Below, in pieces: positions 57,791-64,000 of a stretch of DNA of 64,000 nt. Numbering within the stretch: the first letter of the stretch is position 1; each line of letters begins with the position of its first letter. A program made the position numbers and the translations under genes. This DNA is from a bacterium (lineage in GTDB: Bacteria > Zhuqueibacterota > Zhuqueibacteria > Zhuqueibacterales > Zhuqueibacteraceae). Below the pieces are notes generated by a model. It was not told the origin of the DNA. It did no database searches and saw only the letters and a list, made by a program, of their open reading frames with translations. Location: NCBI GenBank assembly GCA_044869275.1, contig JBIOXB010000063.1, positions 15,303-79,302 of the forward strand, given 5' to 3'.

Positions 57791-58777
57791 ATGGAAGTGA
57801 ATCAAATGAACAACCATGGCAGAAACGGGATTTGGACGCCTGAAATGTGGCAACGCATCGAACAGGCGGTACACGACGAGCACAAACTGACTCAAATAGC
57901 AGCAAAGTTTCTTTCCATTTACCCCGTGCAACCGGATACCAAGACTGTGTCCGCCGACACGGTCAAAGTGACGAGCACATCGCAAGGATCTGCTCTGCTG
58001 AGAATCAACGAACGAGAAGTTGTACCCCTCCTGGAGATTTCGCTTGAAGTGGCATTAACAAAACAGCAAGTCGAAGACCCCGGCATGATGGCGGCGATGG
58101 CCCTCGCGCGCGAAGGGGCCAGCCATTTGGCGCGGGCGGAGGATGCACTGATCTTCCGCGGTCGTGACGCGCTCAAAGACGAAATTTTTAAAAGTGGTAT
58201 CGTCCAATTGCGAGACGCAACGCGCAACGATAACACCGTCGAGTTCTCTGAGGATATTGTCGGCCTGTTGACGGACTTGCCAGATAATCAAGTCATTCCG
58301 GTTGAGCCCACCGAGACGAATGCCACAGATACAGCTCTGAACCGATACGGCGAAAACACATTTTCAGCGGCCGCCAAGGGGTTTTCCCGCCTGCAAAGGG
58401 CACAATATGGCCGCCAAGCGCTGGTCCTCCCTACGAATTTCTTTGCGGATACGTTTGCGGCATTATCGACCTTAATCATGCCAGAGAATCGTATCAGGGG
58501 TCTCGTTCACGAACACTATTACGGTTCAAGCGCGCTGTTGAACGAATTTGGAGTCGAAGGAACGGCGCTTCCGACTGGAGTTCTTGTGGCCATTGATGGA
58601 GATACCGCGGATCTGGTGGTGGGCCAAGATGCCACAATTGAATATACGACGATGGACAGCTCTGGACGGCACCAGTTTCGGCTTTTCGAGCGCTTTGTGC
58701 TGAGAAGGAAACGAAAAGAAGCAGTCGCCGCGCTGCAGTTTCTCCCAGAAAAACTGAATCAACCCGCCGCTGGCTGA
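57791..58777 (+). CDS. Family 1 encapsulin (Linocin M18-like, HK97-fold nanocompartment shell protein).
   Basis: N-terminal MNNHGRNGIWTPEMWQRIEQAV parallels MNNL(Y/H)R(D/E)LAP(V/I)T...W.EI. C-terminal LVAIDGDTADLVVGQDATIEYTTMDSSGRHQFRLFERFVL parallels the M. tuberculosis / T. maritima encapsulin end (..RGGDFDLQLGTDVAIGY....VRLYLQETLTF). GGGAGAAG RBS 7 nt upstream. ~52% GC. Confidence 0.8.
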   Translation: MEVNQMNNHGRNGIWTPEMWQRIEQAVHDEHKLTQIAAKFLSIYPVQPDTKTVSADTVKVTSTSQGSALLRINEREVVPLLEISLEVALTKQQVEDPGMMAAMALAREGASHLARAEDALIFRGRDALKDEIFKSGIVQLRDATRNDNTVEFSEDIVGLLTDLPDNQVIPVEPTETNATDTALNRYGENTFSAAAKGFSRLQRAQYGRQALVLPTNFFADTFAALSTLIMPENRIRGLVHEHYYGSSALLNEFGVEGTALPTGVLVAIDGDTADLVVGQDATIEYTTMDSSGRHQFRLFERFVLRRKRKEAVAALQFLPEKLNQPAAG

Positions 58778-58902
58778 TGGTCGAAAGAGGCGGTATGGAG
58801 AAATTGCGTCTTGCAAAGATTATTTGGCCACCAGTTCCGGAAAGAGCATGAGAATTTGTTTGCCTGTATTTGTTGGCATTTGACTAAAGAAAGAGAAAGG
58901 CA

Positions 58903-61900: not shown

Positions 61901-64000
61901 AAAGCATCAAGTTTGTTATGGTGCACAAAAACGGCGAAACCGAAGTTTCACTCGATCCCACGCTGGTTTCAGAATATGTAACGGAAAAGCCTTTGTATGT
62001 GCGCTTACAACCTGGCGCTGCCCCTCCCAAAGTGGCGCGCGAGGATATCGACTTCATCGAAATGCGTCTCACGGAGAAACTGCCGCTGTTTGCGCGCGTC
62101 ATCGTTCATTCCGGCGCGCTGCACTACCGCACCCGGCACATGAGCCATTTTCTGTTCAAGAGCAGCCGGCTTGAAAACTTATTGGCTAACGATTCGCCCG
62201 TAATCATCAACACCCCGCTCGATGCCGAAGAGCTGCGCAATCCGCGGCAGGAAGACCGTGAGGCTGCGAAAAAGCTGATCACCCATCTCAACGAGCATCT
62301 CGAATACTATCACAAAGTGATCTGGCGGCACATGGACAGAGACCGCCGTTATATGCTGCTCGACGGTTTCGAGGTCGAGCTGCCCAATGGCCGGCGCCGT
62401 AGTTTGGCTTCGGTGATTGAGAATCGCCTGATCGGCATTGCCGGCAACAGCCTGGTCATGCCGGTAGCGCGCGGCTTTCGTCTTGATCCGAATTTCAACC
62501 AGGATGCCGAGAATCCCGTTGATCTGCTCCAGCTCTATGCGCCGAACACGCCGATTCCGCCCATGCGCATCAGTGTGCCCACCAGCGGCGTGTATGCCGA
62601 GGCAGTGATGGGCCAGTGCAACAGTTGCGAAGTGAAAGACGACAGCCGCTTCTGGAAATGGGACGAAGCGCCCTGCGGCGACGAGCCGACCGCGATTCAA
62701 GCACCGAGCACCGAATCGCGCCGCGCCGAGCCACCCAGCTTGACGCCAACGCCTTTGCTGCAACCGATCATCGGCATGCAAACCGCACCGGAAGCGCCGG
62801 CGCCGACCGGCCTGGCTTCCGCCATGCAGCTTCTCGGCACGCCCAATCTGTTCAAGGACATCACCGGCCTGGATCTGAACCAGCAAAATGCCATGTCCGC
62901 GCTCAGCGCTTCTTTGGAGAGCGCCAAAGCTTTTGGCAATATGGCGTTTCAGCTTGAGCAGCAGAAACTTGCCAATCAAGCGCAGCTTGCACAACAGAAT
63001 GCCTCGTCCAGCAACTTGAATAATCAGTTGCAGCAAATCCAACAAGCCAAGAAGGACGGACACCTCACGGCGGAACAAGCCAAAGAACTCACTCGACAGG
63101 CGTTGAGCAGAGATATTGGGATGACGCCAACTACAGCAGGCGGAAATATTGAAACAAGTCCTGGCTCTTTAGAGAGTAAAAAGACCGATGATGGGACCTT
63201 GAGGGACGATCCAAATTCGGATGATGCAACTGCTCACACTGGGCAAGAGCCGAAATGTGAGGATATAGAGCTCTCCAGTCCTCATGATTATGAAGTACCA
63301 GGAGTGAAACTTTTCACACAGCCCAACCCTAATGCCTGCTGGGCAGCGGCTGCGACCACGCTCGTCTATTCGCGCCATAAAGAACTTGATTCTATTGAAA
63401 AAGTCCTGGAAAAAGCTGAACAACAATCCTCGGATAAACTCAAATACTTAAATAAACTCAAGAACGGGGAAAGACTTTCAGGTTCGGAAAAGAACGATTT
63501 CCTGAATGCGCTTGAACTTGTGGCAGCGCCTGTTTCCCTCGCAGCAAAAAATACCGAAGAGGGTACTTCCCCAATAACAGATCTTGACGGCAGCCAGGAG
63601 CAATATCCTCGAATAGTGTTTTATAACCCTAGCGAGTTTTTTAGTCTTCTCAAATGCTATGGGCCTTTATGGATTACGACAGATGCAGAGGAAGGTGAGG
63701 ACTTTTCAGCTCATGCCCGAATAGTTACAGGCATATCCGGTGATTTCCGTGATGAAAGTTATAAAAACATCAAACTAAAAATCTTTGATCCCAATCCTAA
63801 GTCTCCCAACAATCAGCGACCTGATCAGACATACTTTGATTTTATGCAAGAGTATGGAAAGGTACTCGATGAAGACATGAAGGAAGGAAGAAAGTTACGG
63901 CCTCAAATCGTGCACCTTGCGGCTTCTGGATCAAAGACAATGTCTTCTGATGAAAGAAGTGATTTAACTACTACAATAGTAGCTTCACCTGAAGCTACTT
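58903..64000 (+). CDS. Giant multidomain protein (more than 1,699 aa visible; 3' end beyond the window). N-terminal ~115-aa domain, ~180-aa charged disordered linker, CarboxypepD_reg-like beta-sandwich repeats, Cys-rich segment, Gly-rich segment, and a C-terminal papain-like cysteine peptidase-like domain of distinct base composition.
   Basis: Hand translation of frame 1 from the ATG at 58903 (stop TAA at 58885 upstream; GAGAAAGG RBS) runs to nt 64000 without a single stop, about 5.1 kb. It is absent from the supplied track because it has no stop in the window. Beta-sandwich signatures: LSGRVLDAAGKQQVVNKQVLL...TDKQGYFSGKF. Gly run: GGGFSFGGFGVSGGGGGS. Papain-like Cys/His: PNPNACWAAAATTLVYS ... 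SAHARIVTGI ... KIFDPNP. The antisense ORFs 59635..60906 and 62179..63078 are shadows. Confidence 0.7.
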   Translation, partial: MQYNHHGKKLWFGTDDTPAPDGVVQTDTAVTITIGVSPPDASNKIKILYRKNHGPVQTISAPWLRNDRSRNAQYFQGRIPATELRAGDKVEYTAVCNCVGRQVPPETSAMRFPGSFQVSASSGEKSKTEEEGGRGRSDKAEEESKSVALPHATAAKKNNHKEKPEYQKLKSPQEASGSSKQPKNSEDDRANENGRNDDSVGAKIETINRRKDLKVVNSEEDGKPNSSVAGRHKAANDHGQHGIASSPRIEESCDDTSSEPEEEFDEPAVSGYNLEPPEKQFQIKGKLIDRNGNRFTGHQVVASFQQQVTVEGDEAPHVVWMPSEERAEVAKSGDFVLLLPDKNNLQGSLNLNVIAPDGEVLLRREFSLPEIENEINIEVEAKTPREMKSAALPAVVKRLKLSGRVLDAAGKQQVVNKQVLLYGRLAGAEPEDFTLLLASRTDKQGYFSGKFSGGQYEEAYGAVSIGANEKVPIRLENGALPEKVVLVIAVPESESEGNCGCKAVVPRCPDSEDLVNASGTYSTDLGGGRCVEFTAPNRTLEEFSFHSVVRSTDPVIKGLTLNQRRKIPPQLLKALSRKNKGDDLQAVKRLARQMYLDEINALIDMHNKKASGRDRLSAKNPIDWDNEPTFYQATTIAHGHLLHFKQIWKADGYSLGDLLYSLPLAPCQKKQIAIIDWKRRERAEREERIKAGEEMDASITHNRDIADIINSALDESMQGESKSSTWSAGGGFSFGGFGVSGGGGGSNSSAWQNSSRDLAASELQQLRDRVMQAASAQRSQKATVVQTAKQGEDMEVTTEVVANHNHCHTMTIEYFEVLRHFAVEQELADVQECLFIPLLMSRFDQEKVLRWREFLGRFLRRRALRPGFDAIERIQNNYVGSDLPKGRYAEEIIEYLSGELSVSFEIFRPRDGEEGKFVPANWEPVMPFLDEKTKQLYKQFFNRSDAEEWKAFLDAVEEGGGGLGGFFIASIYKYKYEEKIERDKIFEKELAPRIAQGILESIKFVMVHKNGETEVSLDPTLVSEYVTEKPLYVRLQPGAAPPKVAREDIDFIEMRLTEKLPLFARVIVHSGALHYRTRHMSHFLFKSSRLENLLANDSPVIINTPLDAEELRNPRQEDREAAKKLITHLNEHLEYYHKVIWRHMDRDRRYMLLDGFEVELPNGRRRSLASVIENRLIGIAGNSLVMPVARGFRLDPNFNQDAENPVDLLQLYAPNTPIPPMRISVPTSGVYAEAVMGQCNSCEVKDDSRFWKWDEAPCGDEPTAIQAPSTESRRAEPPSLTPTPLLQPIIGMQTAPEAPAPTGLASAMQLLGTPNLFKDITGLDLNQQNAMSALSASLESAKAFGNMAFQLEQQKLANQAQLAQQNASSSNLNNQLQQIQQAKKDGHLTAEQAKELTRQALSRDIGMTPTTAGGNIETSPGSLESKKTDDGTLRDDPNSDDATAHTGQEPKCEDIELSSPHDYEVPGVKLFTQPNPNACWAAAATTLVYSRHKELDSIEKVLEKAEQQSSDKLKYLNKLKNGERLSGSEKNDFLNALELVAAPVSLAAKNTEEGTSPITDLDGSQEQYPRIVFYNPSEFFSLLKCYGPLWITTDAEEGEDFSAHARIVTGISGDFRDESYKNIKLKIFDPNPKSPNNQRPDQTYFDFMQEYGKVLDEDMKEGRKLRPQIVHLAASGSKTMSSDERSDLTTTIVASPEAT

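Follow-up and report, generated by a model that had tools for sequence, protein, structure and literature searches.

Near the right end of a 64,000-nucleotide (nt) stretch of a Zhuqueibacteraceae genome (contig JBIOXB010000063.1, positions 15,303 to 79,302; the whole stretch is referred to here as the window), a gene for an encapsulin-type shell protein of 328 amino acids (aa) is followed by a giant open reading frame (ORF) on the same (+) strand. Comparisons with related loci indicate that this giant is one body-swapped case of a widespread pattern, apparently not described before, in which encapsulin-type shells are associated with giant toxins, chiefly of the Tc (ABC) type. The original prediction, made from the letters of the window, had placed an encapsulin shell gene at 57791–58777 and a long frame from the ATG at 58903, and both are borne out; the shell ORF is present on the + strand with a match to Linocin_M18, and the frame runs without stops to 64000, a total of 1,699 codons, with an in-frame TAA six codons to the 5′ side and a ribosome-binding site (GAGAAAGG) just ahead of the ATG. 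As had been supposed, the giant was missing from the first ORF track because the ORF listing leaves out ORFs that run off the source. Its 3′ end is provided by a public Logan contig, L001 (SRR30692717_152675), which agrees with the window at every position of their 9,145-nt overlap and contains the stop of the ORF, giving a complete length of 2,078 aa; the last module runs 1,137 nt plus the stop codon past the window (L001:9118–10281). Met-1 is invariant among 56 aligned homologous N-terminal domains, which supports the start call.

Related shells were compared at 120 fetched loci (40 from GTDB genomes and 80 from JGI metagenomes; L numbers), each searched with every segment of the giant. First, only residues 1–115 of the giant (58903..59247, + strand; the N-domain) recur beside shells, at about 72 loci with 29–54% identity by tblastn and nearly always on the same strand, with 6–625 nt, and in most loci less than 340 nt, between the shell match and the start. 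Secondly, among shells with at least 700 nt of downstream sequence, an N-domain ORF lies directly downstream on the same strand for 54 of the 64 that are at least 34% identical to the window shell, and for 7 of 24 at 20–34% identity. Thirdly, the shell/N-domain loci span Cyanobacteria, Acidobacteriota, Gammaproteobacteria, Acetothermia, Actinomycetota and Rhizobium, and the window fits the common layout of a shell within ∼20–340 nt of an N-domain-headed ORF; its stop-to-ATG spacer is 125 nt, and the median for 72 related shell/N-domain pairs is 126 nt. The recurrence of N-domain ORFs 3′ of related shells speaks against a chance co-acquisition of shell and giant. The idea that the giant ORF is the partner of the shell survives in part, in that the ORF is real but only its first ∼115 aa constitute the conserved partner.

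The ORFs headed by the N-domain are very large, the longest complete examples having 3,284, 3,278, 3,270, 3,266, 3,245, 3,180 and 2,931 aa, followed by others of 2,802, 2,791, 2,706, 2,527, 2,519 and 2,465 aa and downward. All 35 large partners have the first ∼150 aa in common and some 20–25 of them have one common body, with the body of the window giant being common only to L006. The common body is that of a Tc toxin TcA protein according to Pfam (TcA_TcB_BD, E = 1e-126; ABC_toxin_N, 3e-50; Neuraminidase-like, 2e-38; also VRP1 and PA14), and TcA domains are present in the relatives L080, L104, L012, L018, L128, L129 and L130. A giant same-strand ORF is also located 5′ of the shell at 30 of the 39 loci with enough sequence, and is a fused TcB-TcC (SpvB, 3e-109; TcdB mid-N and mid-C, FG-GAP and RHS, all by Pfam), such that the commonest order at related loci is fused TcB/TcC, shell, TcA. 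The closest shell relative, in a metagenome-assembled genome (MAG) of Chroococcidiopsidaceae, stands in the series TcB/C (2,487 aa), a 45-aa ORF, a LamG_3 protein (239 aa), shell (325 aa) and TcA (3,252 aa), and in Paraburkholderia terrae the N-domain begins 125 nt 3′ of the shell and leads into a TcA body of 3,012 aa. RefSeq labels the corresponding genes of the Nitrosospira sp. NRS527 plasmid pNRS527-1 as “SpvB/TcaC”, hypothetical, “encapsulin” and “neuraminidase-like domain-containing protein”, and this operon (L130, record 55510–75393) offers a complete TcB/C, hypothetical, encapsulin and TcA series in a cultured nitrifier. The TcB/C, shell, TcA order is kept with the more distant Nitrosomonadaceae shells (28–30% identity; L130 and L034, the latter from Nitrosomonas nitrosa Nm90). 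The small genes between TcB/C and the shell are not conserved across loci, with a Laminin_G_3 protein of 239 aa in a cyanobacterial locus (L129:9219–9938) and an unrelated 203-aa hypothetical protein in Nitrosospira (L130:12758–13369).

Bodies other than TcA are also found behind the N-domain directly after shells. These include a patatin-like phospholipase (L048, 1,167 aa), DUF3237 proteins of ∼290 aa (L031, L032 and L037), and the core and Peptidase_C70 body of the window giant described below, and at L127 a gene of 152 aa beside the shell encodes the N-domain as a stand-alone protein. The arrangement is thus modular, in that TcA-like, core plus C70, patatin, DUF3237 and stand-alone forms by shells begin with the N-domain at residue 1, followed by a segment whose composition is of the disorder type. 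In most partners the stretch after the N-domain is ∼50–90 aa long, and that of the window giant is the longest, at ∼165 aa.

The N-domain itself is well conserved, with a mean column identity of 55% and the motifs LWYGTPDAPAP, QYF, GDxVEY and CxCAGRQVP; its invariant residues are intact in the window giant, and the window N-domain is 44.5% identical over 119 aa to that of the L080 TcA. An AlphaFold 2 (AF2) model is an all-beta sandwich with a mean predicted local distance difference test score (pLDDT) of 90.9, and Foldseek relates it to carbohydrate-binding modules (CBMs), namely CBM21, CBM34 (the TVAI N-domain) and CBM56, and to the N-domain of Lmo2446, although these matches are weak (E ∼1e-3, template modelling scores of 0.5–0.64). 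The N-domain profile likewise has a weak match to the Lmo2446 N-terminal domain (E = 6e-4) and there are faint matches to Pfam CBM_56; no match was found to the solved TcA structures. A profile search of 1.84 billion representatives returned 503 representative clusters, 192 of them at E≤1e-30. Nearly all of the 150 listed have the N-domain beginning at residue 1, in proteins of up to 3,662 aa, and those listed of at least 1,000 aa comprise about 22 of TcA type, three of core type and a few with bodies unrecognised by Pfam. A search of a 5.8-billion set yielded short fragments only.

Pairwise distances between shells are correlated with those between the N-domains that follow them (r = 0.72, n = 64, Mantel p≤0.0005). 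At 17 TcA loci the shell–N-domain correlation (0.42) exceeds those of the shell with the TcA C-terminal domain (0.20) and of the N-domain with the TcA C-terminal domain (0.14). This difference is suggestive of joint inheritance, in which shell and N-domain would travel together while the bodies are swapped behind them, and it is suggestive only, the loci being phylogenetically related. Natural fusions of shell and N-domain genes were sought as evidence of contact and are present in none of the 72 pairs; a candidate, P0281, sits on a contig fragment and seems to be an artefact of read-through or gene calling.

We consider it likely that the shells and the N-domain proteins are functionally coupled. 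The idea that shell and giant of the window form one module, with the giant a polymorphic-toxin-like effector built of three pieces, is about evenly balanced, and physical docking of the N-domain to the shell as the mechanism falls slightly on the doubtful side of that. On this model the N-domain would hold a large toxin at the shell, with the flexible linker as tether, and the docked toxin would be either loaded into the shell lumen or displayed on the shell surface; the shell, if it assembles, could be a particle that stores, assembles or delivers toxins whose size precludes ordinary secretion, and the C70 domain could be either a releasing protease or the effector. More tentatively, and well short of an even chance, the whole shell subfamily and its CBM-like N-domain may represent a new toxin-handling nanoparticle, in which a folded N-terminal adaptor loads or displays giant toxins, these being Tc-toxin syringes, PLAT-core proteins with C70 or M23 domains, and patatin phospholipases. 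The binding, the inside or outside position of the cargo, the assembly of the shell and the toxicity of the giant are all inferred.

Several observations weigh against the docking model. The TcA pentamer, at ∼1.5–1.8 MDa, would be too big for a T=1 shell, going by the sizes in established structures. The Nitrosomonadaceae TcA proteins have an N-terminal PG_binding_1 domain in place of the N-domain, so that the link between shells and Tc toxins does not strictly need it; at a separate locus, L072, both an N-domain and a PG-binding-like segment are apparently present. Sister shells (30–38% identity) are followed directly by T4 gp19-type tail-tube proteins without an N-domain, often fused to an N-terminal class-I S-adenosylmethionine (SAM) methyltransferase (L096:8749–10395, L024:10840–12468, L019:3522–4583 and L115:1151–2332; also L011, L105, L119, L027, L123 and L124), which is a further case of an encapsulin-like shell accompanied by a part of an injection apparatus. 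Relatives carrying the N-domain include the secreted multidomain protein P0383 and P0322, which has eight tandem repeats and PT linkers. At L126 (10001–10866), within surroundings rich in terpenoid or polyketide-cyclase genes, the gene for an N-domain protein of 164 aa precedes a distinct DUF3237 gene and no shell gene lies closer than 10 kb, from which it follows that the N-domain can exist without a shell. The downstream immunity-like gene that might accompany a polymorphic toxin was not recognised 3′ of the giant in L001, although a small unannotated ORF there may have escaped notice.

Because its fold is CBM-like and some of its relatives are secreted, tandem-repeated or shell-less, the N-domain may be a glycan- or target-binding module instead. 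In its strongest form this explanation, which we regard as unlikely though far from negligible, holds that the N-domain is a receptor- or glycan-binding toxin module resembling the receptor-binding domains of TcA, that it makes no contact with the shell, and that the two are adjacent only through a shared operon, with the shell acting as a separate assembly platform, chaperone or release factor for very large toxins. The CBM21/34/56-like fold with its Lmo2446 and CBM_56 matches, and the substitution of PG_binding_1 in the Nitrosomonadaceae Tc-shell operons, fit such a role. It is harder to reconcile with the fixed position of the N-domain at residue 1, ahead of a flexible linker, on four unrelated shell-adjacent bodies, with the stand-alone N-domain gene beside the shell in L127, and with a co-variation of N-domain and shell that is greater than that with the TcA body; nor is a signal peptide evident on the giant by inspection.

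The remainder of the window giant differs from most of the partners. Residues 116–280 (59248..59742, + strand) form a low-complexity, charged linker, predicted from its composition to be flexible (165 aa, 89% disorder-promoting and 8% hydrophobic residues), with no homolog in any fetched locus or protein (P numbers). The beta-rich, Ig-like residues 281–494 (59743..60384, +) align to residues 1–225 of P0004, P0017 and P0105, and to L002, L004 and L005, and thus correspond to the N-terminus of stand-alone proteins of a core family. There is no significant Pfam match in this segment, and the Big/CarboxypepD_reg-like beta-sandwiches that had been proposed receive no support from Pfam, the best match being Big_3_2 at E = 0.036. 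The core module (aa 495–1260; 60385..62682, +) has more than 260 matches with E values down to 1e-264, in proteins typically 1,200–1,340 aa long from Streptomyces, Kitasatospora, Planobispora, Rhizomicrobium, Nordella, Chloroflexi, Bacteroidetes, Acidobacteria and others, and despite this membership the family is uncharacterised. Its stand-alone proteins begin exactly at residue 281 of the window giant, and no shell neighbour was found for four stand-alone core-family genes in long contigs of other genomes. The window giant is therefore, as judged from these alignments, a body-swapped chimera in which the N-domain and linker have been grafted onto a complete member of another family. The candidate that the whole giant is a conserved cargo was rejected, as only aa 1–115 recur by shells and the four stand-alone core genes are shell-less.

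The same graft is present in two other proteins. P0307 (1,802 aa, 60% core identity) has the N-domain and core and ends in Peptidase_M23, and the 2,519-aa giant of a Methylococcales MAG (P0309, L006:11047–18603), at a locus that retains the shell, is ordered as N-domain, linker, a TcA-type N-terminal helical segment, core module and C70. The motif order of the helical segment is near-identical to that in L080, and L006 is a visible TcA/core recombinant, intermediate between the two body types.

The core model (pLDDT 74) combines long beta-hairpins and long helices with a Gly-rich loop that is disordered. Its only recognisable element is a PLAT/LH2-type beta-sandwich, matched locally by Foldseek with probabilities of 0.9–0.97; the core overall gives no Foldseek match at E≤0.001. 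The PLAT-like domain suggests a putative membrane- or lipid-contacting function. A Pro-rich and then Gln-rich helical linker follows (aa 1261–1460; 62683..63282, +), which is coiled-coil in type and matches the same region of core-family proteins at 33–70% identity. The papain-like peptidase of the original prediction is present, as an AvrRpt2-like papain-fold cysteine protease (Peptidase_C70, PF12385; aa 1461–1690; 63283..63972, +; E = 1e-13, 52 bits against a cutoff of 19) in which the motifs NACWAAA and SAHARIV are visible, the catalytic Cys and His being assigned by inspection only. The last module (aa 1691–2078), whose first nucleotides (63973..64000, +) end the window and the rest of which is in L001, is an unannotated C-terminal cassette of 388 aa without a Pfam match. 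It recurs as the C-terminus of the core-family proteins P0087 and P0093, and its Q-x-x-C and H-W-W motifs are, by inspection, reminiscent of papain-fold enzymes. A C-terminal targeting peptide of the GSLxIGSL type was looked for at the end of the complete protein, which reads ...ANYYGAIIATI, and is not present. Across more than 120 homologs the C-termini of the core family vary, Peptidase_C70 being the commonest and LysM, OmpA, ComEA-type HhH, DUF2272, DUF4056 and C92 also occurring by Pfam. Among core-family genes in other contexts, Rhizomicrobium palustre has a tandem pair, of 1,826 and 1,329 aa, separated by a 100-aa gene (L002:2215–11990), and overlap with a gene downstream of it is seen for the core-family gene in L003, L004 and L005 (the overlapped genes encoding DUF3238, an OmpA-like protein of 633 aa, and a protein of 355 aa).

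Base composition bears on the history of the giant. The prediction had placed the pair within a low-GC block, and this applies to the AT-rich spacer 5′ of the shell gene (57115..57790, 676 bp, GC 0.444) and to the C70 and C-terminal cassettes (0.429 and 0.405), but not to the shell (0.53), the N-domain (0.545) or the core (0.545), the window mean being 0.548. GC at third codon positions falls to 0.37 in C70 and 0.335 in the C-terminal cassette compared to ∼0.65 in the core, a sharp break within one ORF that fits a recent replacement of the end cassettes. Exchange at this end is also seen among homologs of the giant, with C70, with M23 in P0307, and with the last cassette shared with P0087 and P0093.

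These same features raise the question of whether the pair is a relic, the remainder of a Tc locus in which TcB/TcC disappeared and another body took the place of that of TcA, with a shell that no longer works with the giant. No TcA domains (VRP1, ABC_toxin_N, Neuraminidase-like or TcA_TcB_BD) are found in the window giant, Peptidase_C70 being its only Pfam domain, and the L075 TcB-C had no tblastn match in the window; the recently swapped look of the 3′ cassettes, the AT-rich spacer and an unassignable 133-aa ORF upstream are in keeping with decay of this kind. We nonetheless consider it improbable. The shell ORF is intact with all of the invariant subfamily residues (11/11), as are the N-domain invariants, the N-domain and core architecture recurs in P0307 and in L006/P0309, the latter beside a retained shell, and the patatin and DUF3237 partners are likewise without Tc parts.

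The shell (57791..58777, +) is, judged by its sequence, a divergent Family-1-type encapsulin of the HK97 fold. It matches Pfam Linocin_M18 (PF04454) with E = 2e-19 and 70 bits, against a cutoff of 24, and the NCBIfam encap_f1 equivalog (NF041155) with 74.2 bits, under the cutoff of 100, which marks it as a divergent member of the family. As a single sequence it barely matches solved encapsulins (E about 0.015). The profile of its subfamily (95 clusters, 30–53% identity) matches 28 solved encapsulin sequences in the PDB, all of the best ones being Family 1, with Myxococcus xanthus EncA at the top (E = 3e-28) over nearly its full length including the N-terminal helix. Compared to Family 1, the subfamily has a ∼50-aa segment without counterpart and a shorter E-loop. 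One metagenomic contig carries two shell genes in tandem (L106:547–2268).

Homology to Family 1 leaves room for an ordinary encapsulin whose small enzyme cargo, bearing a targeting peptide, is encoded elsewhere and to which the giant is merely a neighbour, and cargo from outside the operon is known for some encapsulins. This is quite improbable given the 54/64 synteny across phyla and a score under the NCBIfam equivalog cutoff; moreover, neither the window nor the annotated loci have a gene for DyP, a ferritin-like protein or any other known cargo beside the shell, and in the window neither an adjacent small cargo gene nor a C-terminal targeting peptide on the giant (protein end ...FLANYYGAIIATI) was found. 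A prophage major capsid protein with the giant as its structural or ejection protein, as might be imagined from an HK97 fold common to phage capsids and from Gly-rich giants with cell-wall hydrolase ends that resemble virion-associated proteins (M23 in P0307), is highly improbable and was rejected, since tblastn of the shell against 50,697 phage genomes gave no match, neither protein has a PHROG family, L001 has no called genes for portal, terminase or protease, and the solved relatives are all encapsulins, the best of them Family 1.

The 125-nt spacer between shell and giant (58778..58902, +) shows no significant structure on folding (z-score −0.47) and no + strand terminator was found in it, and a regulatory RNA or terminator at this position was rejected; with such a spacer, co-transcription of the two genes is plausible. 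Upstream of the pair, the predicted GAF/sigma-54 AAA+ activator is confirmed by Pfam (55108..56697, +), as is a Ser/Thr kinase-tetratricopeptide repeat gene. As a relevant neighbour, however, the activator does not hold up, since the gene clusters conserved upstream at related loci do not include it. A canonical sigma-54 promoter (TGGCAC-N4-6-TTGC) was not found in the window. The only good half-sites, TGGCAC-N11-TTGCA at 57520–57541, lie ∼250 nt 5′ of the shell gene and 3′ of the activator, and are perfect −24/−12 half-sites with a non-canonical spacing 6 nt too long; a scan allowing three mismatches was uninformative (634 matches compared to 687 expected). Sigma-54 control of the pair was rejected on the lack of a canonical site and of a conserved activator, and no match to a sigma-70-like promoter was found in the 57115–57790 spacer. 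Between the activator and this spacer are overlapping ORFs at 56713–57114 (+, 133 aa) and 56746–57123 (−, 125 aa), in the region of the “ORF remnant” noted earlier, which could be neither confirmed nor assigned; the 133-aa ORF, the one of the two called in L001, has no Pfam match, and no similarity was found that would make it a TcC or LamG remnant.

To the right of the giant, the next gene begins 353 nt downstream and encodes a 402-aa protein with a GH42-like match and a hydrophobic N-terminus that resembles a signal peptide by inspection. Approximately 1.6 kb 3′ of the giant (L001:11932–13922) an 84-aa ORF is followed by a gene for a B12-binding radical SAM enzyme of at least 616 aa, and these could be the precursor and maturase of a ribosomally synthesised and post-translationally modified peptide. 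A PADLOC search for anti-phage defence systems matched neither the shell nor the giant.

The preferred reading, that of a shell with a docked toxin-like giant, has points in common with several known systems. As in Family 1 encapsulins such as those of M. xanthus (EncA) and Thermotoga maritima, the shell belongs to PF04454 and the partner gene is adjacent on the same strand. Unlike these, the window shell falls under the equivalog cutoff and has the ∼50-aa insert and shorter E-loop, its partner is a toxin-like protein of 2,078 aa (with TcA relatives up to ∼3,300 aa) in place of a small oxidative-stress or iron enzyme, and the conserved element is a folded N-terminal domain and not a C-terminal targeting peptide. 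The cargo-loading regions of Family 2 cargo are disordered, with short motifs; the resemblance to these lies in an N-terminal loading determinant and a disordered stretch, and the difference in a conserved, folded beta-sandwich of ∼110 aa (pLDDT 91) and a Family-1-like shell. Tc toxins of Photorhabdus, Yersinia and Serratia consist of a pentameric TcA injector and a TcB-TcC cocoon, and most of the shell relatives are in bona fide Tc operons whose TcA proteins have the N-domain in common with the window giant. The window giant itself is not a Tc toxin, because it has no TcA domains and the window no TcB/TcC, and the N-domain is unmatched in solved TcA structures. Like polymorphic toxins, in which a releasing peptidase is also frequent, it has an N-terminal module shared across bodies, a conserved centre, exchangeable C-terminal cassettes and a low-GC 3′ end; unlike them, it has no evident immunity gene downstream, its trafficking partner would be an encapsulin-type shell, and several C-terminal cassettes of the core family are binding domains and not toxins. 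A conceptual parallel is with the MuF-domain polymorphic toxins of temperate phages, which are thought to be carried with the HK97-type phage head; these also have a large toxin joined by an N-terminal adaptor domain to an HK97-fold shell, but here there is no MuF domain and there are no phage genes, and the shell is of encapsulin type with no DNA packaging implied.

The 2021 census of encapsulins does not use the word “toxin” and includes no toxin-type partner, and it left 90 Family 1 systems unassigned; a genome survey of Tc toxins mentions no capsid-like or accessory gene. In searches of full-text literature, subscription-only articles lying outside their reach, nothing was found that links encapsulins with Tc toxins, with a toxin and a cargo-loading domain, or with DUF3237. 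Among the matches listed, “encapsulin” with “TcA” occurred only in tricarboxylic-acid senses, and encapsulin, linocin and HK97 terms were never combined with Tc gene names. What would be new is the class of partner that goes with an encapsulin-type shell and the kind of determinant that marks this partner, and there is a realistic chance of the system being more distinct than this.

Encapsulins are containers for small oxidative-stress, iron-storage, sulfur and terpene enzymes, and Tc toxins are free-standing injection machines. An encapsulin-type shell in the Tc operons of environmental bacteria, together with a portable N-terminal domain that places other giant toxin-like proteins by the same shell, joins two fields that are unlinked in the searchable literature. 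The question is directly testable because cultured carriers exist, including Paraburkholderia terrae, Halochromatium glycolicum DSM 11080, Nitrosospira sp. NRS527 (plasmid pNRS527-1), Nitrosomonas nitrosa Nm90 and Cyanothece sp. BG0011. If the shell does store, assemble or deliver toxins, this would explain how non-secreted megadalton toxins are handled safely within the producer, and could bear on the bacteriocin activity with which linocin M18 was reportedly first described and which went unexplained. Very large proteins could then be loaded onto protein cages by way of an adaptor domain taken from nature, and the system would constitute both a new function for encapsulins and a new mode of trafficking for polymorphic toxins.

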